From contig JBLMXQ010000040.1 of the NCBI GenBank assembly GCA_050257855.1, forward strand, positions 7,059 through 71,058: 64,000 nucleotides of DNA, written 5' to 3'. This DNA comes from Betaproteobacteria bacterium. Its GTDB lineage: Bacteria > Acidobacteriota > Vicinamibacteria > Vicinamibacterales > CAVVIG01. Both the position numbers and the translations under genes were made by a program. Shown in pieces: positions 3,598-28,212 of this stretch. Under the pieces are notes generated by a model that searched no databases, had not been told where the DNA came from, and was given only the letters and a program-made list of their open reading frames with translations. Each line of letters starts with the position of its first letter. Positions within the stretch are counted from its first letter, which is position 1.

Positions 3598-3628
3598 TGG
3601 ACCCTCCACGCGTATTCAGGAGGGACCC

Positions 3629-6284: not shown

Positions 6285-6403
6285 GTTCCGGTGAGTTCCG
6301 GCGCGGGGCACATCCTTTGCACCGCCACACTCCGAACGCCTGAGCCTTGGGCAGTGACGCGCGTCGCGTCGCGTGCTCGGGCGGACCAAGGAGTGATGAG
6401 CCG

Positions 6404-7412: not shown

Positions 7413-7461
7413 CCGGGTGTCCGGACCGGGGCTGTGCTCGTGGGCCGGGTGCCGGCAGCTC

Positions 7462-8376: not shown

Positions 8377-8412
8377 GCATTCCCCCCGCAAGTGATGGCA
8401 TCCTAGTCCCCG

Positions 8413-10946: not shown

Positions 10947-12284
10947 CTACAGCGTGACCGCCCTGTCGGTGATCTCCAGGCCGCGATCGATGATCGCGAA
11001 CGCCTCGCGCATCTCCGGTTCGGTGATGCAGAGCGGCGGGTTCGTGAAGAACGAGTTCCAGCGGACGAACGTGTAGAGCCCCTCCTGGCGGAAGAAGCGG
11101 CCGAGCGCCGCCATCTCCTCCGACGTGCCGTTGAACGGCGCCATCGGCTCCTTCGTCTGGCGGTTCCGGATCAGCTCCACGAGACCGAACAGCCCGATCG
11201 ACCGCACCGCGCCGACCGACGGGTGCCGCACGGCGATGTCGGTCATCAGGTCCGACATCAGCGATCCCATCCGCTTCGCGTTCTCGATCAGCCGGTCTTC
11301 CTCGTAGACCTGCAGCGTCGCGAGCGCCGCGGCGCAGGCCAGCGGATGGCTGTTGTAGGTCAGCCCGCCGTAGAACACCCGATCCCTGAACTGATCGGCG
11401 ACGCCGCGGCGCATGCCGACGGCGCCGAGCGGAACGTACGCGCTCGTCAGCCCCTTCGCCATCGTCATGATGTCGGGCACGACGTTCCAGTGGTTGACGG
11501 CGAACCACGCGCCGGTCCGGCCGAAGCCCGACATCACCTCGTCGCAGATCATCAGGATGCCGTGCTTCGTGCACAGTTCGCGGACGCCCTGCAGGTACCC
11601 ATCGGGCGGGACGAGCACGCCGTTGGTGCCGGTGACCGTCTCCAGGATGAAGGCGGCGATCGTCTGCGGTCCCTCCAGCTGGATGACCTCCTCGAGCATC
11701 CCGAGCGATTCGTCGGCCGAATCCCACCCGCGCTCGATGCCGTGGTACGGGTCGAGCACGTGGACGACGCCCGGCAGCCCCGGCTCGGCGGCCCAGCGGC
11801 GGGGATCCCCGGTCAGGGAGATCGCGCCGGCCGTGGCGCCGTGGTAGGAGCGGTAGCGGGCCAGGATCTTGTGACGACCGGTCGCCAGGCGCGCCAGCTT
11901 CATGGCGTTCTCGTTCGCCTCGGCGCCGCCGTTCGTGAAGAAGAACACGTCGATGTCGCCCGGCGCAATCGCCGCGAGCCGCGCGCCCAGGCGCGCGCGC
12001 ACCTCGGTGGCCATGAACGGGTTCGCATAGGCGAGCGTCGAGGCCTGCTCGTGAATGGCGCGCACGACGCGCTCGTCGCCGTGCCCGATGTTCACGCACA
12101 TCAACTGGCTGTTGAAGTCGATGAAGCGCTTGCCCTCAGGCGTCCAGAAGTAGATCCCCTTGGCGCGCGCCACGGGAATGGGATCCACCTTCGACTGCGC
12201 CGACCACTCGTAGAGCGTGTGCGCCTTCGATCCGGCGATCATCTCTTCGCCGGTCATCGTCTTTGCAGTCGTGTCAGTTGCCAT
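10947..12284 (-). CDS. Class-III (omega) aminotransferase, beta-alanine/taurine:pyruvate-type
   Basis: ATG 12284 has GAGG 8 nt upstream. Motifs: FTNGGAEANENAMKLAR, ICDEVMSGFGRTGAWFA, DIMTMAKGLTSAY (PLP-lysine), typical of PLP fold-type I class III enzymes. Confidence 0.9.
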   Translation of the reverse strand: MATDTTAKTMTGEEMIAGSKAHTLYEWSAQSKVDPIPVARAKGIYFWTPEGKRFIDFNSQLMCVNIGHGDERVVRAIHEQASTLAYANPFMATEVRARLGARLAAIAPGDIDVFFFTNGGAEANENAMKLARLATGRHKILARYRSYHGATAGAISLTGDPRRWAAEPGLPGVVHVLDPYHGIERGWDSADESLGMLEEVIQLEGPQTIAAFILETVTGTNGVLVPPDGYLQGVRELCTKHGILMICDEVMSGFGRTGAWFAVNHWNVVPDIMTMAKGLTSAYVPLGAVGMRRGVADQFRDRVFYGGLTYNSHPLACAAALATLQVYEEDRLIENAKRMGSLMSDLMTDIAVRHPSVGAVRSIGLFGLVELIRNRQTKEPMAPFNGTSEEMAALGRFFRQEGLYTFVRWNSFFTNPPLCITEPEMREAFAIIDRGLEITDRAVTL

Positions 12285-12304
12285 AGCAAGCCTCGTTCGG
12301 CAGC

Positions 12305-12326
12305 GGGACGGTCTGAAGACCGTCCC
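12305..12326 (-). terminator. Perfect 9-bp stem-loop between the M28 peptidase and aminotransferase genes
   Basis: gggacggtc-tgaa-gaccgtccc. There is no clear U-tract on either strand, so it could be an attenuator or processing/stability element rather than a full terminator. Confidence 0.45.
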
Positions 12327-12383
12327 CTACCGCTTTTCCAGCATCTACTACCGCTTTTCCAGCATCTACCGCCTCGCCAGCAT
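12327..12383 (-). repeat. Three tandem copies of an 18-nt module ATGCTGGnnAnGCGGTAG; the first copy is the end of the M28 CDS
   Basis: On the minus strand: ATGCTGGCGAGGCGGTAG (12383-12366, encoding ...MLARR*), ATGCTGGAAAAGCGGTAG (12365-12348), TAG, then ATGCTGGAAAAGCGGTAG (12344-12327). The hairpin at 12326-12305 follows directly. Confidence 0.85.
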
Positions 12384-14108
12384 CGCGTCGCGCGCCGCCT
12401 TGAACTCGTTGCCGGGTGCCCACTCGGGATACTTCTCCGCCTGGGCGACCCGATACCCGACGGCGAACAGCAGCTCGAGATCCTCGCGCGCGCCGCTCAG
12501 GTCCCAGTCCGGCCTCACCTCGTCGGACGGCTTGTGATAGTCGCGCTCGGTGAACTCCTCGCGCAGCTTCTCGCCGTAGCCGGCCGGCTTGCCGATGTAG
12601 TCGACGCCGGCGTCGGGATCGAGCGCCGGCACGCCCTGCTTCGCGAAATTGAAGTGGTCCGAGCGGTAGTAGAAGCCCTTCTCCGGCTCCGGATCCGGCC
12701 GGATGATGCGCCCCTGCTCGCCCGCCACGTCCTTCGTGTAATCGTCCAGATCGGACGCGCCGTAGCCGACGAGCGTCAGATCGCGCGTGCGTCCGTGCAC
12801 GTTCAGCGTGTCGATGTTGATGTCGGCCAGCGTCTTCGCCAGCGGATAGATCGGCGTCGTCGCGTAGTACTGCGACCCGAGCAGCCCCTGCTCCTCCGCC
12901 GTGACCGCCAGGAACAGGATGGATCGCTTCGGCGCGACCGGCAGCTTCGTGTACGCGCGCGCAATCTCCAGCATCCCGGCGACGCCGACCGCGTTGTCCA
13001 CCGCCCCGTTGTAGATGCGGTCGCCGTTGACCGGCTGGCCGACGCCGAGATGATCCCAGTGCGCCGAGTAGACGACGTACTCGTCGCGCAGCGTCGGATC
13101 GCTGCCCTGAAGCTTCGCCACGACGTTGCGCGAGTCGATCGTCCGCAGCTTGTTGTGCAGCGTCATCGACGCCGAGACGCCGAGCGGCACCGGCTTGAAG
13201 TCGCGCGTCGCCGCCTGCGCCTTCAGGGCATCGAAGTCCTGTCCGGCCATCTTGAACAGCTCCTTCGCGCTGTCCTCCGTGATCCACCCTTCGATCGCCG
13301 CACGGCTCATGTTCTTGTCCGGCGTCACCAGGTCGAACTTCTCGCCGAGGTTGCCCTGGACCACCGCGAACGGATACCCGGCCGGACCCGTCTCGTGCAC
13401 GATGAGCACGCCGGCCGCCCCCTTCTGCGCGCCGATCTCGTACTTGTAGGTCCACCGGCCGTAGTACGTCATCGCCTTGCCGCCGAAGGTCTTCGGATCG
13501 AGCTGGTCGGGGTTCGATGGATCGGGTACCGGAGGATCGTTCACGAGCATGACGAGCGTCTTGCCCTTGACGTCGAGCCCCTTGTAGTCGTCCCAGTTGA
13601 ACTCGGGCGCGACGACGCCGTACCCGACGAAGACCAGCTCCGAGTTGTCGATGTGCGCTTCGGGCGCCACGTGCTTCGTCCACGCAACGACTTCGTCCTT
13701 CCACTTGAGCTGCCGGGTCTGGGAGCCCTTCTTCAGCACGAGCGGCGCGGGCGAGGCGGTGATGCCGACGAGCGGCACCTTCTGGATGTAGCTCCCGTTG
13801 GTGTTGCCCGGCTTGAGCCCTATCTTCCTGAACTCGCTGACGATGTAGTTGACCGTCAGATCCTCGCCGCGGGTGCCGGGCGCACGCCCCTCGTACTCGT
13901 CCGACGCGAGCACTTTCGTGTGCGCGAGCACGGCGCCGGTGTCGACCTGCGGGAGTTGGCCGATCGGCACGCGCTCGCCCGACTGGGCCGCGGGCGCGGG
14001 TCCGGCCGCCTTCTGCGCCGGCGGCTGCGACCGGGAGCAGGCCGTGGACGAGATGGCGGCGAGCAGGAGGGCGGCGGAGACGGTGCGAAAGAAGCGGGCT
14101 GTACGCAT
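12366..14108 (-). CDS. M28 family metallopeptidase with PA domain, probable lipoprotein
   Basis: [24 protein letters not shown] signal; HWDHLG...[17 protein letters not shown]...AEEQGLLGS...YHKPSDE. It is a paralogue of 9263..10909. Confidence 0.85.
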
Positions 14109-14118
14109 AACGGGTCGA

Positions 14119-15396
14119 TTATCCCGCGCGCGCGCCCATCAGGTCGAGGGTGGCGAGCGCCAGAATCTTCGTCGCGTTGATCAGATCCTCGACCCGGCAC
14201 CACTCGTCCGGCTGGTGCGCCATCTCGAGCTCGCCGGGGCCGTACGCCACGCAGTGCGGCACCCCGGCGATGCGCGCGACGTGCTTGTGGTCGTAGGTGC
14301 CCGGGCTGGCCACGATCGCCGGCCGACGGCCGAGAACGCGCTCGATGGACGCCTCGAGCGCCGCGACGAGCGGCGACCCGTCCGGCGTCCGTGTAGGATG
14401 AACGACCATCAGGTCGCGGACGTCGAACCGGATCCCGTCGGTCCCGGCCTGCACGCGGCCGACGAGCTCGGCGATCTCCTGCCTCGTCGCCTCGAAGCCT
14501 TCCTCGAGGAGGAAGCGCCGATCGAACACGGCGCGGCAGAGGTCCGCCACGCACGGCGTCTGAATGCCGTCGACCGGCTGCCCGCCCTCGATTCCGTTGA
14601 TGTTGATCGTCGCCTGCCGCGCGCCCTCGGGCACCACGGGCACGTCGGTCCGCCGCGAGGCGAGCTTCGGCGCGAGATCCTCGCGCACGGACTGCAGCAG
14701 CCGCCCCATGCCGTCGATCGCGCTCCGGCCGAGGAACGGCATGCTGCCGTGGCCGATCCGTCCGTGCGCCGCGACCTCGAACCAGTACACGCCGCGGTGG
14801 CCGATGCAGATCCGGTCGACGTTGAGCGGCTCGGGGATGATGACGTAGTCGGTGCGGCCGCGGGCGATACGGCCCGACTCGGCGAGGTACGCGACGCCGG
14901 CAAAGCCGCCGCTCTCTTCGTCGACGGTGCCGCTGATCTCGATCGAGCCGGGCAGCTCGACGCCGGCGCGCGCAATCGCTTCTGCCGCGAACAGCGCGGC
15001 GGCGATTCCCGCCTTCATGTCGCAGACGCCGCGCCCGTAGATCTTCCCGCCGCGCACGAGCCCGCCGAACGGGTCGACCGTCCACCCGGCTCCTGCCGGC
15101 ACGACGTCGAAGTGCCCGTTCAGGTGCACGACGGGTCCCGCCCCTCCGCGCCGCGCCCCGACGACGTTGACGCGCGGGTACCGCGCGGTGTGCTCGGGGC
15201 GGCCAAGGGCGGCGATGTACTCGACGTCGAAGCGCGCGCGCGCCAGCCGATCGCCGATGAACCGGGCGCACTCCTCGTACGCCTCGCCCGGCGGGTTGAC
15301 GGTCGGGATGCGGACGAGATCGGCGGTGAAGGCGACGATCTCGTCCGCCGCGCGATCGACCTGCTCGACGATGCGGTCGATCGGGAGCGTGCTCAC
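14119..15396 (-). CDS. M20 family metallo-amidohydrolase/peptidase (ArgE/DapE/carnosinase-type), cytoplasmic
   Basis: GTG 15396 overlaps the receptor stop (GTGA). Motifs: [31 protein letters not shown], and a C-terminal [14 protein letters not shown]. No signal peptide. The rest of track ORF 14119..17637 is a shadow of the receptor gene. Confidence 0.85.
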
Positions 15397-18300
15397 TGCC
15401 CGAAGAAGTACCGGAGGCCGAACTGGATCTCGCGGCCTCCCAGATACGTCACCGGGGTCCCGAACTGCGGACCGGACACGTTCGACACGGTCGCGACGTT
15501 CGCGCGGTTCAGCAGGTTGAACGCCTCGACGAGGACGCTCGCCGCCTGGGTGCCGAAGGCGAACTTCTTCTCGACGCGCACGTCGACGTCGGCGTACGGC
15601 TTGATCCGGAACGAGTTGCGCGGCTGGGACAGGTCGCGCTGGTCGACGAGGCCGTCGCCGTCGCTGTCGATGAGGCCGCGCGGGTTGAACGCGGTGCCGC
15701 TCCGCCAGAACGCGATGCCGCTCACGTTGACGTCGTAGGGCAGCACGGCGACGCCGTTGGCCACGAAGATGTGCGGCGCCGACTGGTTCGACGGCCCGTA
15801 GTCGTACCCGGGGTGGTTGTTGTTGGCGAAGGTCGAACCGACGGTGCCGGTCAGCAGGTTGTCGCGCGCGCGCGAGCCGGTGTACGAGACGCCGAACTGG
15901 TACCGGTCGCTGAACCGCTTGCGCGCCGACAGCACGATGCCGTCGTAGTTGACGAGGCCGTCGTAGGTCACCTCGCTGATCTGGGGTCCGCCGTCGGTCG
16001 TCTTGCCGAAGTTCGGGTCGCCGGGCGGCACGTCGAACAGGTTGATGATGCGCCGCGTCAGCAGGTCGCGCGACCGCCGGCGCACGTACATCGCCGACAC
16101 GGCGAAGTCGCCGGCGAACTGATGATCGACGCCGACGCTGAAGGCGTTGGTGTAGGGCACCTTGTCGCCCGAGTACTGCGACACCTGCCGGGTCACGTCG
16201 AGCGGCCCGCGCGGGAAGAACGACAGGACCCGGTTGCCGACGATCGAGCCGCCGGGCACGTCGAAGAACCGCCAGTCGGTCCCCGGATATTTCTGCTCGA
16301 GCAGTGCAATCGCCTGGTCGGCCGTTTTGCCCGACAACTGCTGGATGTTGTCCGCCGTCACGAGCGGCGCGTGCGCCGGGTCGGTGACCGCGATGCCGAG
16401 CAGCTTGTACAGGGCCAGCGGATCGGCGCGCAGGTCGGCCGCCATCTGCTGGTACCGCTTGTTCTCCGGCGGCCCGAACGTGTTCGGACCGGTCGGGAAC
16501 CCGCTCGTGATGACGTAGTCGATGAGCGAGTTCGTATAGTCGGCGCCGAGACGCGGCAGCGCCACGTCGAACACGGACTTCGTGAACACGCCCCCCTTCT
16601 CCGGCACCGTCGACGCCGCGGCCAGCAGGTTCCGGTCGAAGAAGAGCCCGTAGTCGGCCTTCACGATCGTCTTGTGCGTGCCGCCCACGTCCCAGGCGAA
16701 CCCGAGCCTCGGCGCGAGCGCCTTCTTGTAGCCGCCGAACAGACTCGAGTAGTCGTAGCGCACGCCCGCGTTGATCGTCACGTCGGGCAGCACCTGCCAC
16801 TGGTCCTGCGCGAAGCCCGAGACGTCGTTGGTCCTGATGTTCTGGTTCAGGCTCCCGTCGGGATTCGACGACAGCGTGAAGAACCGCGCCGCCGACCACT
16901 CGAAGCCGTAGAGATTGAAGTCCTGCGCGAAGACGTCTGCCTGGTTCGGCGCCAGGAACGCCGGCGAGTACTCGACGTCGTTGGTCACCTGCTGGTACCC
17001 GGTGACGCCGATGTGGTTGTAGTCCCAGCCGAACTTGAAGCTGTGATCGCCGGCCTTGCCGGGCAGGTAGTAGCTGAGCGCCTGCGCAACCTGGTAGCGC
17101 TTGCTCACCTGGTCGGTCTGTCCGCCGAACGGCGCTCCGGTCTGGATGAATCCGCTGCGCAGCAGCATCAGCAGCGGCTCCGACCGCTGCGACTGCCCGA
17201 GGTTGTTGCCGGTCTCCCCCCGCGCGAAGCCGAACGTCGACTCGAGGAACGTCGAGCTGCCGAATACCGCCGTCTCGCGGACGGCGCCGCTCGTCGCCGG
17301 CGTCTCGCGGGTCGCCGCCGCGCTCGGCATCGCGATCGTTCCGGCGACCGGCGAGCTGATGAGGCCGCTGTTCGTGTTCGTGCTCCGGTTGAACGTCGCC
17401 ATGAGCCGGTTGGACGGCGTCAGGTTGGCGTCGACCTTGAAGTTCCCGGTGAACGCGGCCGTCTCGGGCGCGATGCCGAAGTCCTCGACGTGGCTCGGCG
17501 TCGCGAGCCCGCTCAGCACGAATGCCGGGATCTTGCTCTTGTCGAAGTTGACGCCGCGCGTCTCGTTCAGCTTCTCGAACGATCCGAAGAAGAACGCCTT
17601 GTCCTTCACGATCGGCCCGCCGAGAGTCCCGCCCCACTGGTAGCGCTCGAGCTGCGGCGGCTTCGGCGTGACGTAGTTCGCCGGCAGCGGGCTGGGGGCC
17701 GGGATGTTGTTGGAGTCGAACCGGTCGTTGCGCGTGAACCAGAACGCCCGGCCGCCGAAGTTGTCGGTCCCCGAGCGGGTGACGATGTTGGCGACGCCCC
17801 CCTGGGCGCGGCCGAACTCGGCGGCGTAGCCGGTCGTGATGACCTCGAATTCCTTGATCGAGTCCTGCGTGTAGCGCACCAGCGCGCCGCCGTTGACCGG
17901 ATCGTTGTTCTCGGCACCGTCCACGAGATACGACACGGCGCTCGCCCGCTCGCCGAAGATCTCGACGTTGGTCGTCGACGTCAGGTTCGGATCCGGCTTG
18001 GCGCCGGGGACGAGCGCCACCAGGTCGGTGAAGTTGCGTCCGTTGAGCGGCAGCGCGTCGATCGTCCGCTGCGAGACCGTCGTCGTGATGTCGGAGCGCG
18101 TCACCTCGACCAGCGGAGCCTCGGCCGAGACCTGCACCGACTCGGAGACGCCCGCGATCGGCAGCGTGAAGTCGAGCGTCGTCTGCTGGTTCAGGACGAC
18201 TTCGACGTCGTGCCGCGTCTGGGCGGTGAAGCCGCTCAGCTCGACGGTGATGTCATACGTGCCCGGCGGGACGAGCGGAATCCGGTACGTGCCGTCGGCC

Positions 18301-18491
18301 GTCGTCGTCGCCGTCGCGCTCTGGCGCTGGAGGGACGGCCCCTTGATGGTGACCGTGGCGCCCGGGAGCACGGCGCCGCTGGCATCCTTGATGGTGCCGG
18401 CCACCGAACCGGTCACCTGCGCCCACGCCGGCGCGGCGGCGACGAGCAGCACGACGAACAAGACCACCTGCAGAACGCGACTGCGCTGCAT
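15393..18491 (-). CDS. TonB-dependent receptor with N-terminal carboxypeptidase-regulatory-like domain
   Basis: ATG 18491 after GGAGGGG. Signal MQRSRVLQVVLFVVLLVAAAPAWAQ; CarboxypepD_reg-like GTIKDASGAVLPGATVTIKG...TTTADGTYRIPLVPPGTYDITVELSGF; plug-like IDALPLNGRNFTDLVALVPG; long barrel ending ...LRYFFGQ. Confidence 0.85.
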   Translation of the reverse strand: MQRSRVLQVVLFVVLLVAAAPAWAQVTGSVAGTIKDASGAVLPGATVTIKGPSLQRQSATATTTADGTYRIPLVPPGTYDITVELSGFTAQTRHDVEVVLNQQTTLDFTLPIAGVSESVQVSAEAPLVEVTRSDITTTVSQRTIDALPLNGRNFTDLVALVPGAKPDPNLTSTTNVEIFGERASAVSYLVDGAENNDPVNGGALVRYTQDSIKEFEVITTGYAAEFGRAQGGVANIVTRSGTDNFGGRAFWFTRNDRFDSNNIPAPSPLPANYVTPKPPQLERYQWGGTLGGPIVKDKAFFFGSFEKLNETRGVNFDKSKIPAFVLSGLATPSHVEDFGIAPETAAFTGNFKVDANLTPSNRLMATFNRSTNTNSGLISSPVAGTIAMPSAAATRETPATSGAVRETAVFGSSTFLESTFGFARGETGNNLGQSQRSEPLLMLLRSGFIQTGAPFGGQTDQVSKRYQVAQALSYYLPGKAGDHSFKFGWDYNHIGVTGYQQVTNDVEYSPAFLAPNQADVFAQDFNLYGFEWSAARFFTLSSNPDGSLNQNIRTNDVSGFAQDQWQVLPDVTINAGVRYDYSSLFGGYKKALAPRLGFAWDVGGTHKTIVKADYGLFFDRNLLAAASTVPEKGGVFTKSVFDVALPRLGADYTNSLIDYVITSGFPTGPNTFGPPENKRYQQMAADLRADPLALYKLLGIAVTDPAHAPLVTADNIQQLSGKTADQAIALLEQKYPGTDWRFFDVPGGSIVGNRVLSFFPRGPLDVTRQVSQYSGDKVPYTNAFSVGVDHQFAGDFAVSAMYVRRRSRDLLTRRIINLFDVPPGDPNFGKTTDGGPQISEVTYDGLVNYDGIVLSARKRFSDRYQFGVSYTGSRARDNLLTGTVGSTFANNNHPGYDYGPSNQSAPHIFVANGVAVLPYDVNVSGIAFWRSGTAFNPRGLIDSDGDGLVDQRDLSQPRNSFRIKPYADVDVRVEKKFAFGTQAASVLVEAFNLLNRANVATVSNVSGPQFGTPVTYLGGREIQFGLRYFFGQ

Positions 18492-18510
18492 GGCATCCCC
18501 CTCCCCTCTC

Positions 18511-19971
18511 CTACCGATATCGAGCCGTGACGACCTTCTGTTCCGTGTAGAACCGCACGCCGTCCTTGCCATGGGCGTGGAGATCACCGAAGAACGACCC
18601 TTTCCAGCCGCTGAACGGGAAGACTGCGTACGGCGCCGGCACGCCGACGTTCACCCCGACCATGCCCGCCTCGACCTCGCTGACGAACCGGCGGACGGCC
18701 GAGGCATCGCTCGTGAAGATCACCGCGCCGTTGCCGTGCGCCGACCGGTTCACGACCGCGAGCGCCTCGTCGAGGCTCGCCACGCGGATGATCGAGAGGA
18801 CCGGGCCGAAGATCTCCTCGCGCGCGATCCGCATCGACGGCGAGACGCGATCGAAGACCGTCGCCCCGACGAAGTACCCGCCCTCCGGTCCCTTCGCGCG
18901 CCCGTCGAGCGCCAGGCTCGCGCCCTCCTTCACGCCGATATCGATGTAGGAGAGCACTCGCTCGCGCTGGGCGGCGTTGACGACCGGCCCCATCTCGCAG
19001 CCGGGCGCGTCGCCGGGCCCTACCTTCAGCGACGCGGCACGCTCGGTCAGCCTCGCCACCAGCACGTCGTTCGGATCGACGACGACCGCCACGCTGCCCG
19101 CCATGCACCGCTGGCCGGAAGATCCGAACGCCGAACCGAGAATCGCGTCCACCGCCGGCTCCACGTCGGCGTCGGGCATCACGACCATGTGGTTCTTCGC
19201 GCCGCCGAGCGCCTGCACGCGCTTGCCGAGCCCGGCCGCGCGCGCGTAGACCGCGGCGGCCGCCGCGCTCGATCCGACGATCGACACGGCGCGCACGAGC
19301 GGATGATCGATGAGCTGCTCGACCTGCCGCGCGCTGCCGTGGACGAGGCTGACGACGCCGGGCGGAAGCCCGGTTTCGGCCAGGAGCTCCACCAGCCGCA
19401 CGGCGGTCAGCGGCACCTTCTCGGACGGCTTCAGCACGAACGAGTTGCCGCAGGCGATCGCAATCGGCAGCATCCAGAGCGGCACCATCGCCGGAAAGTT
19501 GAACGGTGTGATGCCGACGCAGACGCCGAGCGGCTGGCGCAGACTGTAGGCGTCGACGCCGGTCGCCACGTTCTCGAGGGTCTCGCCCATCATCAGCGTC
19601 GGAATGCCGCAGGCGAACTCGACGACCTCGATGCCGCGCTGCACCGAGCCGCGGGCATCCTCGAGCGCCTTGCCGTGCTCGCGCGTGATGAGCCGGGCGA
19701 TCTCCTCCTTGTGCGCGTCGAGCAGGTCGCGATACCTGAACAGGTACCTGGCGCGCGCCGGCGTCGGCACGCGCCGCCACTGCCGGAACGCGCGGTCGGC
19801 CGCCGCAACGGTCTCGTCTATTTCCGCGGCGGTGCACAGTGGCGCGGCGGCGATGACCTCGCCGGTCGCCGGGTTGTGCACGTCGAGGCGCTCGCCGGCC
19901 GACGACTCGCGCCAGACGCCGTTGCTGAAGAACCGGCACGCCGCCGCACCGGAGCGTGTGGCCACAGTCAT
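18511..19971 (-). CDS. mmsA: CoA-acylating methylmalonate/malonate-semialdehyde dehydrogenase
   Basis: ALDH superfamily with MmsA-type features: FNFPAMVPLWMLPIAIACGNSFVLKPSE, GSSGQRCMA (catalytic Cys), and the C-terminal FPFSGWKGSFFGDLHAHGKDGVRFYT typical of MmsA. GGAG lies 9 nt upstream of ATG 19971. Confidence 0.88.
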   Translation of the reverse strand: MTVATRSGAAACRFFSNGVWRESSAGERLDVHNPATGEVIAAAPLCTAAEIDETVAAADRAFRQWRRVPTPARARYLFRYRDLLDAHKEEIARLITREHGKALEDARGSVQRGIEVVEFACGIPTLMMGETLENVATGVDAYSLRQPLGVCVGITPFNFPAMVPLWMLPIAIACGNSFVLKPSEKVPLTAVRLVELLAETGLPPGVVSLVHGSARQVEQLIDHPLVRAVSIVGSSAAAAAVYARAAGLGKRVQALGGAKNHMVVMPDADVEPAVDAILGSAFGSSGQRCMAGSVAVVVDPNDVLVARLTERAASLKVGPGDAPGCEMGPVVNAAQRERVLSYIDIGVKEGASLALDGRAKGPEGGYFVGATVFDRVSPSMRIAREEIFGPVLSIIRVASLDEALAVVNRSAHGNGAVIFTSDASAVRRFVSEVEAGMVGVNVGVPAPYAVFPFSGWKGSFFGDLHAHGKDGVRFYTEQKVVTARYR

Positions 19972-19995
19972 GATGAAACTCCGAAGAACGGCAAG

Positions 19996-20024
19996 CTTTT
20001 ACTAGAAAGATGCAAGGTTGTCAA
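19996..20024 (-). promoter_or_regulatory. Candidate sigma70-type promoter of the mmsA-receptor-peptidase operon
   Basis: On the minus strand: TTGACA (20024-20019), 17 nt, TAAAAG (20001-19996). It lies in the AT-richest intergenic stretch, about 25 nt upstream of ATG 19971. Confidence 0.45.
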
Positions 20025-20032
20025 ACTTTGCA
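20011..20032. promoter_or_regulatory. Imperfect palindrome, candidate operator of the MerR-XRE-cupin regulator
   Basis: TGCAAGGTT-gtca-AACTTTGCA has 8 of 9 arm positions complementary. It is centred on the shared TTGTCAA/TTGACAA core that provides the -35 hexamers of both divergent promoters. Confidence 0.4.
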
Positions 20033-20047
20033 GCTTTCTTGTAGGAT
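20018..20047 (+). promoter_or_regulatory. Candidate promoter of the regulator/S58 operon
   Basis: TTGTCA (20018-20023), 18 nt, TAGGAT (20042-20047), 17 nt upstream of ATG 20065. Confidence 0.35.
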
Positions 20048-20064
20048 CCCGCCACCCGTTCGCC

Positions 20065-20862
20065 ATGCCCCGCCCAACCCGGCTCGGCTTCCTGACCGTC
20101 GGTCAGACGGCGCGCATCCTCGGGGTGAGCCCGTCCACGCTCCGCCTCTGGGAAAACGTCGGACTGGTCGTGCCCGCGCGGAGCGACGGCCGCTACCGGC
20201 TGTACAGCCCCGATCTGATCAAGGTCCTCAAGCGCATCAAGTACCTGCGGGACGTGAAGCAGCTCAACGTGCCCGGCATCAAGCAGGCGCTCGGGCGGCC
20301 GGCCGTCGCCAGCGGCCACGCCGCGCCGGCCAGTTTCGGCCCGAAGCTGCGGAAGCTGCGCCAGCGCAGCGGCCTCGGCATCGCCGCCGCCGCCAGGCGC
20401 GCCCAGATCTCGGCCGGCTTCCTGAGCGCCGTCGAGCGCGCCAACGCCAACCCGTCCGTCGCCACGCTGCAGCGGCTCGCCAAGGCGTACGGCACGACCG
20501 TGCTGGAGCTGTTCAACCTGCCGCGCCAGGCCTCGCGTCTGGTGCGCGCGCGCGACCGCCGCGCCCTCCAGACTCACGCCGGCGTTACGATGGAGCTGCT
20601 CTCCACCGGCACGACGATGCTGGAGTCGATGCTGTTCCGCGTCGCGCCGGGAGGCGGCAGCGACGGCGCCTACTCGCACCAGGGCGAGGAGTTCATCTAC
20701 ATGCTGAGCGGTACACTCGAGCTCTGGCTCGACGAGTTCGAATGTCACAAGCTCCAGGAAGGCGACAGCTTCTGGTTCGAGAGCACGCTCGGCCATCGGT
20801 GGTACAACCCGTCTAAAGAGGACGCGGTGCTGTTGTGGATCAACACACCGCCGACGTTCTAG
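20065..20862 (+). CDS. Three-domain transcriptional regulator: MerR-type HTH + XRE (Cro/C1) HTH + cupin
   Basis: Residues 1-70: LTVGQTARILGVSPSTLRLWENVGLVVPARSDGRYRLYSPDLIKVLKRIKYLR (MerR HTH). Middle: GPKLRKLRQRSGLGIAAAARRAQISAGFLSAVERANANPSVATLQRLAKAYGTTVLELF (HTH_3). C-terminus: SHQGEEFIYMLSGTLELWLDEFECHKLQEGDSFWFESTLGHRWYN (cupin_2). This is the in-frame tail of the shadow ORF 17893..20862. Confidence 0.8.
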   Translation: MPRPTRLGFLTVGQTARILGVSPSTLRLWENVGLVVPARSDGRYRLYSPDLIKVLKRIKYLRDVKQLNVPGIKQALGRPAVASGHAAPASFGPKLRKLRQRSGLGIAAAARRAQISAGFLSAVERANANPSVATLQRLAKAYGTTVLELFNLPRQASRLVRARDRRALQTHAGVTMELLSTGTTMLESMLFRVAPGGGSDGAYSHQGEEFIYMLSGTLELWLDEFECHKLQEGDSFWFESTLGHRWYNPSKEDAVLLWINTPPTF

Positions 20863-20883
20863 CGAAGAGACGAGGGTCCAGAC

Positions 20884-21981
<1,098 letters not shown>

Positions 21982-22044
21982 GCGCCTGCGGGTGTCCCGG
22001 GCCCCCCCGGCGCGGCAGCCGGGCAATCTAACGGCGCCTCGCAG

Positions 22045-23454
22045 ATGAACGCCCATCTCGTCCTGCTCTTCGTCTACTCGGGCCTGCTGATCGCGCTCGG
22101 GCTGTGGATCGGCCGGCGCGTGTCCGGCACCAGCGACTTCTTCGTGGCCGGCCGGCGCCTCGGGCCGGGCCTCCTCTTCTCGACGATGCTGGCCGCCAAC
22201 ATCGGGGCGGGGTCCACGGTGGGCGCCACCGGCCTCGGCTATCGCGACGGCGTCGCAGCGTGGTGGTGGGTCGGTTCGGCCGGCATCGGATCGATCGTGC
22301 TGGCGCTGTGGATCGGCCCCGCAATCCGCCGCGTCGCCGCGGAGCACGATCTCCGGACGGTGGGCGACTATCTCGAGCATCGCTACAGCCGCAGCGTTCG
22401 CGCGGTCGTGTCCGTGCTGCTGTGGCTCGGCTCGATTGCGATCCTCGCCGGGCAGCTCATCGCGGTCGCCTGGATCCTCAACGTCGTCACCGGCCTGCCG
22501 AAGTACGCGGGGTGTCTGGTGGCCGGCGTCGTGGTCACGGTGTACTTCACGGCGGGCGGCCTGCTCACCTCGGCGTGGGTGAACATGGTGCAGCTGACGG
22601 TCAAGCTGGCCGGCTTCGCGATCGCGGTGCCGCTCGCGCTGGCGGCGGCCGGGGGCTGGGGCGGGCTGCAGTCCGCCGGGGCGGGACACCAGGGCTACTG
22701 GAACCCGTGGCAGGGCGGCGCGTCGGGCTGGATGTACCTGGCGATGCTCGGCCCAGCGTTCGTGATCTCGCCCGGGCTGCTGCAGAAGATCTACGGCGCG
22801 CGCGACGACCGCACGGTGCGTCTCGGCGTGGGCGCGAACGCGATCGGCCTGCTGCTGTATGCGCCGATTCCGGCGCTGATGGGCATCATCGCACGGGCCA
22901 GGTTTCCCTCGCTCGGCAACAGCGAGCTGGCGCTGCCGATGGTGCTGATGTACGGCGTGCCGACGGCGATCGGGAGCCTCGGCCTCGCGGCGGTCTTCTC
23001 GGCGGAGATGAGCGCCGCCGACGCCGTGCTGTTCATGCTGACGACGTCGCTGTCCCAGGACCTCTACAAGCGGTTCCTGAATCCGGCGGCGACCGATCGG
23101 CGCGTGCTGGCGGTGACGCGGGGCGCGGCCGTCGCATCGGGGTCGCTCGGCGTGGCGCTCGCGATCGTCTCGCCGTCGATCATCGGCGTGCTGAGCATCT
23201 TCTACACGCTGCTCGGCGTCAGCCTCTTCGTCCCGATCGTCGCGGGTCTGTACCTGCGGCGCTCGTCGACGATCGAGGCGCTGGCGGCCATCGCGGCCGG
23301 CGTCGCCGCCATGCTCGCAGCGCAGCTGGCGACCGGCGGCCGGGGTGTCGGCCAGCTGACGCCGGCGATGATTGGCCTCGCTGCCGCGGCCGCAGGCTTT
23401 GCGATTGTGCTCGCAGCACGGACAGGGAAGAGGCAGGATCGGTTCCGGTCCTGA
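22045..23454 (+). CDS. Sodium:solute symporter family (SSF) transporter
   Basis: About 12-13 TM segments. The N-terminal DFFVAGRRLGPGLLFSTMLAANIGAGSTVG signature is typical of PutP/PanF/SglT-type SSF carriers. Confidence 0.88.
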   Translation: MNAHLVLLFVYSGLLIALGLWIGRRVSGTSDFFVAGRRLGPGLLFSTMLAANIGAGSTVGATGLGYRDGVAAWWWVGSAGIGSIVLALWIGPAIRRVAAEHDLRTVGDYLEHRYSRSVRAVVSVLLWLGSIAILAGQLIAVAWILNVVTGLPKYAGCLVAGVVVTVYFTAGGLLTSAWVNMVQLTVKLAGFAIAVPLALAAAGGWGGLQSAGAGHQGYWNPWQGGASGWMYLAMLGPAFVISPGLLQKIYGARDDRTVRLGVGANAIGLLLYAPIPALMGIIARARFPSLGNSELALPMVLMYGVPTAIGSLGLAAVFSAEMSAADAVLFMLTTSLSQDLYKRFLNPAATDRRVLAVTRGAAVASGSLGVALAIVSPSIIGVLSIFYTLLGVSLFVPIVAGLYLRRSSTIEALAAIAAGVAAMLAAQLATGGRGVGQLTPAMIGLAAAAAGFAIVLAARTGKRQDRFRS

Positions 23455-23472
23455 AGGATTCAGTCTCCAGAC

Positions 23473-24258
23473 ATGCCGACCGACAACATCTTCTCTCTCG
23501 CCAACAAGACGGCAGCAATCATCGGCGCCGGGTCGGGCATCGGCGAAGCGGTCGCGGCGGGCGCGGCCGCGCTGGGCGCGTTCGTCGCCTGTCTCGACAT
23601 GAACGGGACCGCCGCGAAAGCCGTTGCCGGCCGCATCGGGCCCGACACGGCGGCGGCGGCGCTCGACATCCGGGACGCGCGGGCCACGGGAGAGGCGCTG
23701 GAGGCAATCGCGCGCGAGCGAGGACGCCTCGACGTCGTCGTGTGCACGCCGGGCATCAACGTGCGCAAGCTGATTCTCCAGTACACGGAAGAGGAGTTCG
23801 ATCGCGTCGTCGCGGTGAATCTCAAGGGCAGCTTCAACGTGCTGCAGGCGGCCGGGCGCGTGATGACGAAGCAGGGCAGCGGGAGCATCGTGCTCTTCTC
23901 GTCGATTCGAGCGCAGGTCGTCGAGCCCGGACAGTCCGTGTACGCGATGTCGAAGGCGGGCATCCTGCAGCTCGTTCGCGCGGGCGCGGCCGAGTTCGGC
24001 GCGTCCGGCGTTCGTGTCAACGCGATCGGGCCCGGAGTGGTCGAAACGCCGCTCACCGAACCGATCAAGGCCAACCGTTCCTGGTACGACGCGTACGCGA
24101 ACAAGAGCGTCCTGAAGCGGTGGGCGCGGGCGGACGAGATGGTCGGCCCCACGCTGTTTCTCGCGTCCGACGCGGCGAGCTACGTGACCGGCACGATTCT
24201 GTTCGCCGACGGCGGCTGGCTGGCCGCCGACGGGCGGTTCACGCCGCCGGGGATGTAA
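23473..24258 (+). CDS. SDR family NAD(P)-dependent oxidoreductase
   Basis: TAAIIGAGSGIGEA (TGxxxGxG-like), catalytic YAMSKAG (YxxxK) and NAIGPGVVETP. Confidence 0.88.
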   Translation: MPTDNIFSLANKTAAIIGAGSGIGEAVAAGAAALGAFVACLDMNGTAAKAVAGRIGPDTAAAALDIRDARATGEALEAIARERGRLDVVVCTPGINVRKLILQYTEEEFDRVVAVNLKGSFNVLQAAGRVMTKQGSGSIVLFSSIRAQVVEPGQSVYAMSKAGILQLVRAGAAEFGASGVRVNAIGPGVVETPLTEPIKANRSWYDAYANKSVLKRWARADEMVGPTLFLASDAASYVTGTILFADGGWLAADGRFTPPGM

Positions 24259-24285
24259 TACCCGGGGCCGGGGGCTGGGACGACG

Positions 24286-25347
24286 ATGGGCCATTTCAGA
24301 ATCGCGGTGATCGCAGGTGACGGCATCGGACGCGAGGTGATCCCGGCGGGCATCGGCGTCCTCCGTGCGGCGGCGCGCGGGTCGGACGTCGAATTGCGTT
24401 TCACCGAGCTGCCGTGGGGCTGCGAGCACTACCTCGCCAGCGGCCGGATGATGGACGCGGACGGTCTCGACCGGCTCTCCGAATTCGACGCGATCTATCT
24501 CGGCGCGATCGGCGCGCCCGGCGTTCCCGACCACGTGTCGGTCTGGGAGCTCATCCTGCCGATCCGGCAGCACTTCGATCAATACGTCAACCTGCGGCCG
24601 ATGCGGCTCCTGCCCGGGCTCAGGTCGCCGCTCGCCGATCGGGGCGCGGCCGACATCGACATGGTGTGCGTGCGCGAGAACTCGGAGGGCGAGTACGCGG
24701 GGGTCGGCGGGCGGCTTCACGCGGGCACGCCGCACGAGGTCGCGGAGCAGACGGGGCTGTTCACGCGCCGCGGCATCGAGCGGATCCTCAGGTACGGGTT
24801 CGAGGCCGCTTCGTCGCGGCCGCGGCGGCTCCTCGCGAGCGCCACGAAGTCCAACGCGCTGCAGCATTCGATGGTGCTCTGGGACGAGGTTGCGGAGCAG
24901 GTGCGGGGCGACTATCCGGCGGTCGAGTACCGCAAGTATCACGTCGACGCACTCGCGGCGCGCATGGTGACGCATCCGCAGACGCTCGACGTCATCGTGG
25001 CGTCGAATCTCTTCGGCGACATCCTCACGGATCTCGGCGCGGCGATCTCGGGCAGCCTCGGCATCGCGCCCGGCGCGAACATCAACCCGGAGCGGAGGCA
25101 TCCGTCGATGTTCGAGCCGATTCACGGCTCGGCGCCCGACATCGCGGGGCGCGGCATCGCGAACCCGATCGGCGCCATCTGGGCCGGCGCGCTCATGCTC
25201 GATTACCTCGGCCGCCGCGATCTGCACGATCGCGTGCTGGCGGCGATCGAGCGGGTGGTCGCCGCCGGCAAGGTGCGAACGCCGGATCTCGGGGGCAGCG
25301 CGACGACGGCCGACGTGACGAGCGCCATCACTGCCGAGCTGCGATAG
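24286..25347 (+). CDS. Tartrate dehydrogenase/decarboxylase / D-malate dehydrogenase-like beta-hydroxyacid oxidative decarboxylase (IMDH/ICDH superfamily)
   Basis: RIAVIAGDGIGREV, WGCEHYLASGRMMDADGL, FDQYVNLRP, VRENSEGEYAG, NLFGDILTDLGA, EPIHGSAPDIAG. The order and spelling closely follow the TtuC/DmlA type. Confidence 0.85.
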   Translation: MGHFRIAVIAGDGIGREVIPAGIGVLRAAARGSDVELRFTELPWGCEHYLASGRMMDADGLDRLSEFDAIYLGAIGAPGVPDHVSVWELILPIRQHFDQYVNLRPMRLLPGLRSPLADRGAADIDMVCVRENSEGEYAGVGGRLHAGTPHEVAEQTGLFTRRGIERILRYGFEAASSRPRRLLASATKSNALQHSMVLWDEVAEQVRGDYPAVEYRKYHVDALAARMVTHPQTLDVIVASNLFGDILTDLGAAISGSLGIAPGANINPERRHPSMFEPIHGSAPDIAGRGIANPIGAIWAGALMLDYLGRRDLHDRVLAAIERVVAAGKVRTPDLGGSATTADVTSAITAELR

Positions 25348-25376
25348 AGCCCCCACACCGCGAGGGACGCATCGGA

Positions 25377-25402
25377 CGCGAAGGAAGGCGCTGTCCTTCG
25401 CG
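25377..25402 (+). other. Intercistronic 9-bp stem-loop between the TDH-like and amidohydrolase genes
   Basis: cgcgaagga-aggcgctg-tccttcgcg. It starts 30 nt after the stop at 25347 and ends 11 nt before ATG 25414. No U-tract. Confidence 0.35.
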
Positions 25403-25413
25403 GCAGGCCGCAC

Positions 25414-26310
25414 ATGTTGAACGACGCCCACTGCCACTTCTTCTCCACCAGCTTCTTTGCCTCGCTCGGCCGCGGGTTGAAAGACGCGCACGAGGCGCCG
25501 GCCGAGATCGCGCTGGCGAAGCTCGGATGGGAGCCGCCGGGATCGCCGGAGCAGCTCGCGGACCGCTGGGTGGCGGAGCTCGATCGCCACGGCGTCGGGC
25601 GCGCCGCGATCATGGCGAGCGTGCCCGGCGACGCGGCGTCGGTCGCCGCCGCGGTCAACCGCCATCCGGATCGCTTCGTCGGCATGTTCATGGTCGACCC
25701 GACCGACGCCGACGCGGCTCCCGGCGCGGCATCAGCGCTCGATACGGGACGGCTGCGGACGCTCTGCCTGTTTCCGGCGATGCACCGGTACTCGCTGCAC
25801 GACGACCGCGTCGGCCGGCTGCTTCAGCTCGCGACGGCGCGCCCCGGCACCGTGGTGTTCGTCCACTGCGGCGCACTGTCGGTCGGCGCGCGAACCAGGC
25901 TCGGACTGCCGAGCCCCTTCGACGTGCGGTTCGGCAATCCGCTCGACCTGCACGCGGTCGCCGCCGCGTTCCCCTCGGTGCCGTTCATCGTGCCGCACTT
26001 CGGCGCGGGTCTGCTGCGCGAAGCGCTGATGCTGGCCGACCTCTGCCCCAACGTGCACCTGGACACGTCGAGCTCCAACAAGTGGATCCGCTATCACCCG
26101 GGACTGACGATCGACGCCGTGTTCGCGCAGGCGCTCGCAGCGGCCGGGCCGGATCGGATTCTCTTCGGCACTGATTCGTCGTTCTTTCCGCGCGGCTGGG
26201 TGAAAGAGGTCTTCGACGAACAATCCGCCGCGCTTGATCGGCTCGGCGTCTCGCGGGAGATCCGGGAGAAGATCTTCAGGGGCAACTTCGACCGGCTTTT
26301 CGCCGCTTGA
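25414..26310 (+). CDS. Amidohydrolase_2-type TIM-barrel metal-dependent hydrolase (amidase/lactonase/decarboxylase superfamily)
   Basis: N-terminal MLNDAHCHFF (HxH metal motif), a later VFVHCG, PHFG and a C-terminal ILFGTDSSFFP (Asp ligand). Length about 298 aa. Confidence 0.75.
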   Translation: MLNDAHCHFFSTSFFASLGRGLKDAHEAPAEIALAKLGWEPPGSPEQLADRWVAELDRHGVGRAAIMASVPGDAASVAAAVNRHPDRFVGMFMVDPTDADAAPGAASALDTGRLRTLCLFPAMHRYSLHDDRVGRLLQLATARPGTVVFVHCGALSVGARTRLGLPSPFDVRFGNPLDLHAVAAAFPSVPFIVPHFGAGLLREALMLADLCPNVHLDTSSSNKWIRYHPGLTIDAVFAQALAAAGPDRILFGTDSSFFPRGWVKEVFDEQSAALDRLGVSREIREKIFRGNFDRLFAA

Positions 26311-27369: not shown

Positions 27370-28212
27370 ATGCCCGCGCGCCCGACCTGGAAGGGATACC
27401 TGAAGATCAGCCTCGTCAACATCCCGATCAAGGTCTTTCCGGCGACCGACTCGGCCGCCACGCTCAGCTTCAATCAGCTGCACGGCGAGTGCCGGACGCG
27501 GATTCAGCAGAAGCGCTGGTGTCCGCAATGCCAGCGCGAGGTGCCCAACACCGACCTGGTGAAGGGCTTCGAGTTCGAGAAAGGCAGGTACGTCGTCGTC
27601 GACGACGAGGACATCGAGAAGGTGCGCGTGCAGTCGACGCGCGTGATCAGCCTGGAACGGTTCACCGACGACACGGCGATCGATCCCATCTACCTCGAGC
27701 GCGCGTACTATCTGGCGCCCGACGGGCCGGTCGCGATGGAGGCCTTCGCCGTGATGCGCGAGGGCATGAAGGGAAAGGCGGGCATCGGGAAGGTCGCGCT
27801 CTACGGACGCGAATACCTGGTCAAGGTGCAGCCGCGCGAACGGGGCCTTGTCATGTACACCCTGCGGCATGCCGACGAGATCCGGAGCATGGAGGCCATC
27901 GACGAGCTGAACGGGATGCCCGATCGCGTCAAGCCGGCCGAAGTCGACCTGGCGCGCCAGGTGATCGGCACCTTCGAGGGCGACGTCGATTTCGCGTCCT
28001 ACCGCGACGAGTACCAGGACGGGCTGCGCGACATCATCAACGCGAAGATCGAGGGGCGCGAGATCGTCACGCAGGAAGTGGAGGCGCCACCGAAGGTGGT
28101 CAATCTGATGGAGGCGCTTCGCAAGAGCCTGGACACGATCAGCGCGAGCCGGAAGAAGGCGGTGCCCACGGCCCGGGAGTCACGGACGCCGGCGCGGCGG
28201 AAACGCGCCTGA
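27370..28212 (+). CDS. ku: Ku protein (non-homologous end joining)
   Basis: GAAGGAG lies upstream of the start. RPTWKGYLKISLVNIPIKVFPAT...FNQLH...KRWCPQC...VKGFEFEKGRYVVVDDEDI...IDPIYLERAYYLAPD is the canonical bacterial Ku core, followed by a basic C-terminal tail. Confidence 0.92.
   Translation: MPARPTWKGYLKISLVNIPIKVFPATDSAATLSFNQLHGECRTRIQQKRWCPQCQREVPNTDLVKGFEFEKGRYVVVDDEDIEKVRVQSTRVISLERFTDDTAIDPIYLERAYYLAPDGPVAMEAFAVMREGMKGKAGIGKVALYGREYLVKVQPRERGLVMYTLRHADEIRSMEAIDELNGMPDRVKPAEVDLARQVIGTFEGDVDFASYRDEYQDGLRDIINAKIEGREIVTQEVEAPPKVVNLMEALRKSLDTISASRKKAVPTARESRTPARRKRA

Follow-up and report, generated by a model that had tools for sequence, protein, structure and literature searches.

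A possible uptake and breakdown system for pantetheine and pantothenate in an uncultured soil acidobacterium

The bacterial degradation of pantothenate (vitamin B5) is classically a Pseudomonas pathway of four enzymes: pantothenase (EC 3.5.1.22), pantoate 4-dehydrogenase (EC 1.1.1.106), dehydropantoate dehydrogenase (EC 1.2.1.33) and dimethylmalate dehydrogenase (EC 1.1.1.84). For this work PMC10393543 cites Nurmikko (1966) and Airas (1979). The classical enzymes have no sequences, which precludes any direct comparison. Here we describe a locus in a 64,000-nucleotide stretch of DNA (contig JBLMXQ010000040.1, hereafter the window) from an uncultured Vicinamibacterales (Acidobacteriota) bacterium of soil. 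It can tentatively be read as an uptake and breakdown system for coenzyme A-family beta-alanine amides, the likeliest being pantetheine and pantothenate.

An earlier reading of the same DNA, made from the sequence alone (the sequence-only reading), had proposed that the locus encodes the route from pantothenate through pantoate, and had held that the enzymes of this route largely lack assigned sequences. The second statement agrees with our full-text literature searches, which found no gene assignment for any of the four. A 2023 paper reports that pantothenate is cleaved and rebuilt in prototrophs, and describes the pantothenase protein as 'currently unknown' (PMC10393543). Compared with the classical pathway, the window clusters candidate classes for hydrolysis (an M20 deacylase), alcohol oxidation (a short-chain dehydrogenase/reductase, SDR) and oxidative decarboxylation (a TtuC-type enzyme) with a lower pathway for beta-alanine. 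However, an aldehyde dehydrogenase (ALDH) for dehydropantoate is absent.

How would such a system work? A TonB-dependent receptor would take the substrate into the periplasm. There an exported hydrolase of the S58/P1 family, an N-terminal nucleophile (Ntn) enzyme, would split pantetheine into pantothenate and cysteamine, as its homology and the gene contexts of its homologues suggest. A sodium:solute symporter (SSF) may then bring pantothenate into the cytoplasm, where the M20 deacylase may cleave it to pantoate and beta-alanine. An aminotransferase and a CoA-acylating malonate/methylmalonate-semialdehyde dehydrogenase (MMSDH) would carry beta-alanine to acetyl-CoA, a step with support at the family level. 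In the weakest step the SDR and the TtuC-type enzyme would take pantoate through 3,3-dimethylmalate to 2-oxoisovalerate, although the locus has no aldopantoate dehydrogenase to complete it. Both operons would answer to one MerR/XRE/cupin regulator. The parts of this scheme differ in strength. The pantetheinase-like first step is reasonably supported and so, at the family level, is the beta-alanine half. That the full route to 2-oxoisovalerate via dimethylmalate is encoded is plausible but doubtful.

A ThnT-like hydrolase and its homologues

ThnT is the sole microbial pantetheine hydrolase known, according to a 2026 review (PMC13602198). It belongs to the thienamycin biosynthesis genes of Streptomyces (Streptantibioticus) cattleya (PDB 3S3U, 3TM1). 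The window S58 protein is a member of the same self-cleaving Ntn family (DmpA/OAT fold) and is 40% identical, over its full length, to ThnT of the S. cattleya locus. The NT/T..VVAT motif, which holds the self-cleavage site and the Thr nucleophile, is also conserved, with ENTTIGVVATNA of the window protein aligning with LNTTLAVVATDA of the S. cattleya protein. The window protein thus has the S58 fold, is homologous to ThnT from end to end and keeps a Thr nucleophile at its self-cleavage site. However, there are differences. ThnT acts in the cytoplasm, in secondary metabolism and together with ThnR and ThnH, whereas the window protein carries a signal peptide and its gene belongs to a transport and catabolic operon. 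The window locus also has no Nudix or HAD partner, unlike ThnT.

The contexts of homologous genes provide another clue. A tblastn search with the S58 protein against annotated replicons gave ten matches, of which two are the S. cattleya ThnT locus itself. Clostridioides difficile (L092, 5995-8525; such names denote related or compared DNA stretches from other genomes) and Acetoanaerobium (L095, 5986-8538) share the order birA, P1 peptidase, S component of an energy-coupling factor (ECF) transporter and type III pantothenate kinase (CoaX), with a P1 peptidase 49% identical to the window protein. The order is different in Anaerotruncus (L093, 4554-6924), where the pantothenate kinase comes first, followed by the ECF S component and the P1 peptidase. 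The only PDB matches of the clostridial S component are the chains 4RFS_S and 6ZG3_C, which we take to be pantothenate-specific PanT subunits. The type III pantothenate kinase of these bacteria is presumably unable to use pantetheine. The clostridial peptidases, which are cytoplasmic and 44-49% identical to the window protein, are candidate pantetheinases that may enable pantetheine salvage. No description of these operons as pantetheine salvage was found in the literature searched.

Two further matches come from Rhodobacterales. Roseobacter litoralis has panC-panB and, about 4.6 kb away, a GNAT-SDR-cupin-P1 peptidase group. On a Qingshengfaniella plasmid (L096, 1-7975) a Dpp-like ABC transporter, an ALDH, an SDR and a P1 peptidase are joined in a single operon. 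A similar kind of catabolism could be at work in this proteobacterium, complete with the ALDH that the window locus lacks. The contexts in Microvirga and Shinella replicons are uninformative. Because of the homology to ThnT, and because homologues occur beside a PanT-like component and CoaX or in the vicinity of panB and panC, we infer that the S58 clade would cleave pantetheine-type amides and so yield pantothenate. The sequence-only reading had pointed out that free pantothenate explains neither the receptor nor the M28 and S58 peptidases, and had wondered whether they act on pantetheine, CoA fragments or peptides. For the S58 protein the likeness to ThnT favors pantetheine. The M28 peptidase has no place in the pathway as proposed here.

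Two divergent operons and the beta-alanine branch

The genes in question fall into two divergent, tightly packed predicted operons at 10947-19971 and 20065-25347 (Table 1). The minus-strand operon begins with MMSDH and continues with the TonB-dependent receptor, M20, M28 and the aminotransferase; the closest genes overlap by 4 nt and the widest gap is 81 nt. The plus-strand operon consists of the regulator, S58, SSF, SDR and TtuC-type genes and is followed by an Amidohydrolase_2 (AH2) gene, with gaps of 19-67 nt along this strand. Many long open reading frames (ORFs) in the window, which is about 70% G+C, are spurious. Nevertheless, family profile searches recovered all seven genes named in the sequence-only reading (SSF, SDR, TtuC-type, AH2, M20, ALDH and aminotransferase), each at the position and in the family given there. 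The sequencing runs that carry the organism label are soil metagenomes, probably of DNA, and none is marked as RNA.

Table 1. Features of the locus, in order along the window
Feature	Coordinates	Strand	Profile match or other evidence
Class III (omega) aminotransferase, last gene of minus operon	10947-12284	-	PF00202 2.7e-88
M28 metallopeptidase, signal/lipoprotein-like N-terminus	12366-14108	-	PF04389 9e-48
Cytoplasmic M20 ArgE/DapE-type N-acyl-amino-acid deacylase, candidate pantothenase	14119-15396	-	PF01546 + M20_dimer PF07687
TonB-dependent outer-membrane receptor, CarboxypepD_reg N-terminal domain	15393-18491	-	PF25183, PF13620, PF07715, PF00593
CoA-acylating (methyl)malonate-semialdehyde dehydrogenase (MMSDH), first gene of minus operon	18511-19971	-	PF00171 1e-149
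Divergent control region common to both operons	19972-20064		93 nt, promoter-like site + palindrome
Transcription regulator, MerR helix-turn-helix (HTH) + XRE HTH + cupin sensor	20065-20862	+	PF13411 1.6e-18, PF13560/PF01381, PF07883 1.7e-18
Exported S58/P1-family Ntn hydrolase, candidate periplasmic pantetheine hydrolase	20884-21981	+	PF03576 7e-43
Sodium:solute symporter (SSF), proposed inner-membrane importer of the S58 product (pantothenate), putative specificity	22045-23454	+	PF00474 2e-24
Classical SDR, hydroxy-acid/gluconate 5-dehydrogenase type, candidate pantoate 4-dehydrogenase	23473-24258	+	PF13561 3e-58
TtuC/DmlA-family beta-decarboxylating (R)-2-hydroxy-dicarboxylate dehydrogenase, candidate 3,3-dimethylmalate dehydrogenase	24286-25347	+	TIGR02089
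Amidohydrolase_2 (AH2) TIM-barrel metal hydrolase, probable backbone gene	25414-26310	+	PF04909 6.5e-31

The closest described counterpart of the lower pathway is BauA/BauC-type beta-alanine catabolism, with its MmsA/IolA-family dehydrogenase. The window too has a class III aminotransferase and an MMSDH in one operon. The MMSDH scores 652.3 bits against TIGR01722, above the cut-off of 448.5, and so belongs to this subfamily. However, the aminotransferase is not of the BauA type. It falls in the PRK06062/taurine:2-oxoglutarate subfamily (536 bits, cut-off 472), and its neighbors are a TonB receptor and peptidases. Its best solved relative is the taurine:2-oxoglutarate aminotransferase 6JIX (4.8e-111), the next match being 27 orders of magnitude weaker (2.6e-84). 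Beta-alanine and hypotaurine are further substrates of this enzyme class (EC 2.6.1.55), and transamination of beta-alanine (or of hypotaurine/taurine) is the role proposed for the window enzyme. Since a taurine/beta-alanine-type aminotransferase and an MMSDH share one operon, conversion of beta-alanine through malonate semialdehyde to acetyl-CoA is a standard reading. The same MMSDH would handle the methylmalonate semialdehyde that forms when 2-oxoisovalerate is catabolized. Among the related loci an MMSDH gene is found only in the window and in L001, where it (3213-4665) aligns in two pieces because of a frameshift that is either real or a long-read assembly error.

What would release beta-alanine? 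The M20 protein scores above the cut-offs of PRK13013 (627.9 versus 428 bits) and TIGR01910 (284.6 versus 217.6 bits), and its nearest solved structures are those of DapE, at just 3e-29. Its gene adjoins S58 divergently in L008, L013, L019, L024 and L033 and lies within the same locus in L012, L016 and L018. As a deacylase it is a chemically sensible candidate for the pantothenase, an N-pantoyl-beta-alanine amidohydrolase.

A single regulator may control both operons. The gene is concealed within a long false ORF and encodes a 265-residue protein, of which the C-terminal two thirds are PuuR-like. It is kept in L001 (88%) and L030 (75%). The control region between the operons holds a perfect 9+9-bp palindrome, TGCAAGGTTgtcaAACTTTGCA, at 20011-20032. 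This overlaps the -35-like hexamer TTGTCA of the divergent promoters, occurs once in the 64-kb window (0.01 copies expected by chance) and is nearly conserved in L001, the closest relative. It is the probable operator of the MerR/XRE/cupin regulator. An Rfam scan of the window found no riboswitch and no other RNA family.

The true start of the receptor gene is at 18491, and the protein begins with a signal peptide (MQRSRVLQVV...AWA/QV). Orthologues of the receptor occur in L001, L012 and L018. Other receptors have been inserted beside the TtuC or SDR gene in L010, L026 and L032.

The pantoate branch and the variable slot in related loci

The best known relatives of the TtuC-type protein are tartrate dehydrogenase (TDH) of P. 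putida (3FLK) and DmlA of E. coli. Identity to these enzymes is 56-60% (56% for DmlA) and the match to 3FLK has an E-value of 2e-119. A score of 524.1 bits against TIGR02089, for which the equivalog cut-off is 470.4, makes the protein a member of this family. In an alignment with TDH, DmlA and LeuB the motifs IRQ, LRP, VRENSEGEY, TKSN, HVDA and NLFGDILTD are kept, and with them the substrate and metal residues (three Arg, Tyr, Lys and three Asp). The catalytic motifs are common to all. However, the loop before the first substrate Arg reads VWELILPIRQ in the window protein and LWGSLLKFRRE in the gammaproteobacterial enzymes. This loop is no marker of the neighboring genes, as it varies within the Vicinamibacterales without correlation to pan-type or S58-type neighbors. 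Those neighbors are themselves a difference, since the Vicinamibacterales genes are partnered by S58-SSF-SDR or pan genes, whereas TtuC/DmlA genes elsewhere keep company with LysR, ABC transporter and SSADH-type (succinate-semialdehyde dehydrogenase) ALDH genes.

Could this enzyme be the dimethylmalate dehydrogenase? Aldopantoate differs from malate semialdehyde by its gem-dimethyl group, which makes a TtuC-type dimethylmalate dehydrogenase chemically natural. 3,3-Dimethylmalate is therefore a plausible substrate, with D-malate or tartrate equally possible. The sequence-only reading had itself named a tartrate/D-malate route as the simpler alternative. The TIGR02089 score and the D-malate contexts of TtuC-type genes elsewhere (see below) give weight to this alternative, and dimethylmalate is kept as a candidate. 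The preceding oxidation of pantoate may fall to the SDR, whose gene ends 27 nt before that of the TtuC-type enzyme. It is a generic SDR of the hydroxy-acid type and a candidate pantoate 4-dehydrogenase. Its nearest solved structures are the uncharacterized SDRs 3gvc and 4j2h; gluconate 5-dehydrogenase and hexonate dehydrogenases come next.

Related loci place these genes in a wider frame. A search with the AH2 protein recovered 80 loci, almost all from metagenome-assembled genomes of Vicinamibacterales/Acidobacteriota. A TtuC gene lies upstream of AH2 in about 27 loci, those with the closest AH2 proteins. Many of these read S58-SSF-SDR-TtuC-AH2, and their opposite strand encodes M20, M28 and the aminotransferase. 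The related loci with the full module are all from one bacterial order. What is informative is the stretch from M28 to TtuC, a slot whose content varies. In one version the slot holds M20 and, divergently, S58-SSF-SDR, as in the window; some loci add a second S58 gene or a receptor. In another it holds a DUF2520 (Rossmann) gene with panC and panB (L084, 6359-9877; L004), or in the order DUF2520, panB, panC (L007, ~6200-8784; L020, 7562-9916). L003 (263-1911) and L009 have panB-panC or panC, oriented in the same way, at a contig edge. Proteins with DUF2520 are ketopantoate reductases of the PanG type (PMC4572677). The pan genes are co-directional with the TtuC-like and/or AH2 genes and lie just upstream of them; L020 has panB-panC-AH2 without TtuC. 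The TtuC-like gene of L084 (8805-9877) was called as two ORFs, owing to a frameshift that is real or a long-read assembly error.

Gene order is not the same in the two pan arrangements, which share only 43-55% identity, whereas each of the accompanying TtuC proteins has 77-85% identity to that of the window. This suggests that pan genes were recruited here twice. One locus, L011, has both kinds of content: panC, a MacB-like permease and a malonyl-CoA decarboxylase gene on the opposite strand, then S58-SSF-SDR-TtuC-AH2. The decarboxylase gene (3665-5170) is divergent from S58-SSF-SDR-TtuC and occupies the place where MMSDH or M20 sits elsewhere. Pantothenate biosynthesis genes and a second malonate-semialdehyde/malonyl-CoA enzyme thus recur at exactly this place. 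Within the window itself there is no panB, panC, pantothenate kinase (CoaX) or PanT-like ECF component. A group II PLP decarboxylase gene (3760-5589) was considered as a PanP-type aspartate decarboxylase and rejected, with 124 bits against a cut-off of 606.

What if the locus serves vitamin salvage and not catabolism? In this scenario the S58 protein frees pantothenate and the symporter imports it for CoA synthesis, as the counterpart of the panG-panB-panC cassette of the relatives. The aminotransferase and MMSDH then dispose of cysteamine-derived or other amines, and TtuC, SDR and AH2 are unrelated. Consistent with this, the biosynthetic and S58-SSF cassettes hold the same slot in different genomes, the clostridial peptidase pairs with PanT-like uptake and the CoaX kinase, which is a salvage arrangement, and the window aminotransferase is closest to a taurine enzyme. 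However, panC and the S58 cassette are both present in L011. Salvage also has no need of MMSDH, M20 or a TonB receptor, one control region is common to S58 and the catabolic genes, and neither the window nor the related loci have a pantothenate kinase gene. We regard salvage alone as improbable.

Rival readings and what the locus may mean

Several observations do not sit well with a system for breaking down pantetheine and pantothenate, and they are collected here as points that count against it. To begin with, the closest solved match of the S58 protein is not ThnT (1e-47) but a NylC-like nylon hydrolase (8.6e-67), an enzyme of unknown native function. The SDRs that adjoin S58 genes in Rhodobacterales are just 30% identical to the window SDR. 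Uptake raises a similar difficulty. PanF, the E. coli sodium/pantothenate symporter, and the window symporter are both of the SSF superfamily, and PanF (TIGR02119) is the best equivalog of the latter, but at 88.4 bits against a cut-off of 328. Together with 27% identity to E. coli PanF, this score rules out orthology, and the PanF-type carrier of the sequence-only reading falls with it. The locus is also without a YhdT-like partner. Finally, a 219-Da vitamin should require neither a TonB-dependent receptor nor two M28 peptidases.

An alternative that accommodates the peptidases is general scavenging of beta-/omega-aminoacyl amides and peptides. The receptor and the M28, M20 and S58 enzymes would free beta-amino acids for degradation by the aminotransferase and MMSDH, and SDR-TtuC would be an independent D-malate/tartrate module fused downstream by chance. 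The locus does contain three or four peptidase genes and a peptide-type receptor, and relatives of S58 include beta-aminopeptidases, the L-aminopeptidase/D-esterase type and nylon-oligomer hydrolases. Membership of the TtuC-type protein in the tartrate dehydrogenase equivalog fits as well.

Fusion by chance has to be weighed against the kind of conservation seen at this locus. A stand-alone Ku gene (27370-28212 in the window) lies 1-2 kb downstream of AH2 in most related loci, and on the left side DUF1684, PLP decarboxylase, aminotransferase and M28 genes are conserved. M28 adjoins the aminotransferase in related loci too, as part of the backbone. Because the functionally unrelated Ku gene is conserved as well, much of the synteny is that of a chromosomal backbone within one order. 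Moreover, the slot is empty in L006, where TtuC-AH2 stand on their own next to M28. A gap of 100-440 nt separates TtuC from panC in several pan-type loci, and TtuC could be transcribed there from a promoter of its own. Backbone-like synteny and the lone TtuC-AH2 pair of L006 are what fusion by chance would lead one to expect. However, the gap between SDR and TtuC is only 15-37 nt in the S58-type loci. Scavenging also leaves unexplained why, in other phyla, S58 homologues have a PanT-like component and CoaX as neighbors or lie near panB/panC, and why relatives carry pan genes in this very slot. This explanation seems to us unlikely, if not markedly so.

The AH2 gene is best discussed alongside Ku, which it tracks in place of the pathway genes. 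The sequence-only reading had offered AH2 as a pantothenase or pantolactonase, a suggestion that must be dropped. Soil metagenomes are very rich in this family, with more than 7,900 homologues at E<=1e-10, none of them named. Those that are 57-65% identical have MoxR/BatA genes, two-component systems, aspartokinase-dapB or polyphosphate kinase as neighbors. By sequence the best match is the uncharacterized protein 3IRS (5e-6), and a profile search of solved structures gave 8e-5 or weaker. The predicted structure is confident (pLDDT 90) and shows an HxH...H...H...D metal site. Foldseek gave TM-scores of 0.56-0.68 and an rmsd of 5-7 A to lactonases and decarboxylases. No close relation to LigI, fuconolactonase, LigW or ACMSD was found by sequence, profile or fold. 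Invariant D4, H6, H8, H151, H195 and D254, together with numerous arginines that are also invariant, suggest that the enzyme depends on a metal and that its substrate is a carboxylate. Because there is no characterized relative, and because the 57-65% homologues have housekeeping contexts, AH2 is not counted in the pathway. It is probably a conserved backbone gene outside it.

The remaining objections concern the pantoate branch. The locus has no ALDH suited to aldopantoate. Its only ALDH is the MMSDH, so the dehydropantoate dehydrogenase is missing, as feared in the sequence-only reading, which had counted one ALDH for two aldehyde oxidations. TtuC-type genes elsewhere point in another direction. 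In P. putida the order is LysR, TDH, ABC transporter, GabD-like ALDH and GabT-like aminotransferase, and in a fluorescens-group Pseudomonas strain TDH is found with ABC/permease, GabD-like ALDH and aminotransferase genes. Rhizobium binae has an ABC transporter, Xaa-Pro peptidase, D-2-hydroxyacid dehydrogenase, gamma-glutamyl-GABA hydrolase family protein, class III aminotransferase, SSADH-like ALDH and tartrate dehydrogenase in a row. Cereibacter has an alcohol dehydrogenase (ADH), ALDH and TDH together. The SSADH-type ALDH is directly downstream of TDH in Rhizobium and Cereibacter and ~3 kb away in Pseudomonas. In these genera (L089/L090, 9001-17386; L100, 2318-9071; L099, 5449-9038) class III aminotransferases are often near the TDH genes. 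The pairing of TDH with ALDH suggests a common route from malate semialdehyde through D-malate to pyruvate for amino-hydroxy acids or polyols. Because TtuC-type genes elsewhere serve such ALDH-coupled routes, the TtuC step in the window is just plausible. Pseudomonas, the original host of the pathway, was also considered as a source of its genes, but the TDH loci of P. putida and the fluorescens-group strain have no amidase/S58/SDR set like that of the window.

Perhaps, then, the window substrate is an amide-bound amino-hydroxy acid of the 4-amino-3-hydroxybutyrate type. The hydrolases would free it, the aminotransferase would give a malate-semialdehyde-type aldehyde and, after oxidation to D-malate, TtuC would yield pyruvate. 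The R. binae and P. putida clusters would be precedents, and E. coli dmlA adjoins carnitine monooxygenase genes. However, the window ALDH is an MMSDH and not of the SSADH type, its aminotransferase is of the taurine/beta-alanine type and not GabT, and the pantothenate contexts of S58 homologues are again left without explanation. We think this very unlikely.

The preferred reading is still that of a system for coenzyme A-family amides. As for the degradation route first proposed for this DNA, it has gained a ThnT-like S58 hydrolase, the pan gene contexts and the aminotransferase-MMSDH pair. It has lost AH2, PanF and an ALDH for aldopantoate, and its TtuC step is no more than plausible.

What would the locus mean if this reading is right? 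In its most far-reaching form, which we consider rather doubtful, it would be the first gene set for the 1960s pathway, with an M20 pantothenase, an SDR pantoate 4-dehydrogenase and a TtuC dimethylmalate dehydrogenase. The S58 clade would then be a general bacterial pantetheinase of primary metabolism, periplasmic here and cytoplasmic in Clostridia, where it would serve salvage through a PanT-like ECF component. EC 3.5.1.22, 1.1.1.106, 1.2.1.33 and 1.1.1.84 have been without genes for about sixty years, and the locus offers concrete candidate proteins. The clostridial P1-peptidase operons with a PanT-like component and CoaX likewise offer candidates. If true, thousands of genes now labeled 'P1 family peptidase', 'DapE-like' or 'tartrate dehydrogenase' would be re-annotated, and abundant soil Acidobacteriota would be shown to recycle fragments of coenzyme A as sources of vitamin, carbon and nitrogen.

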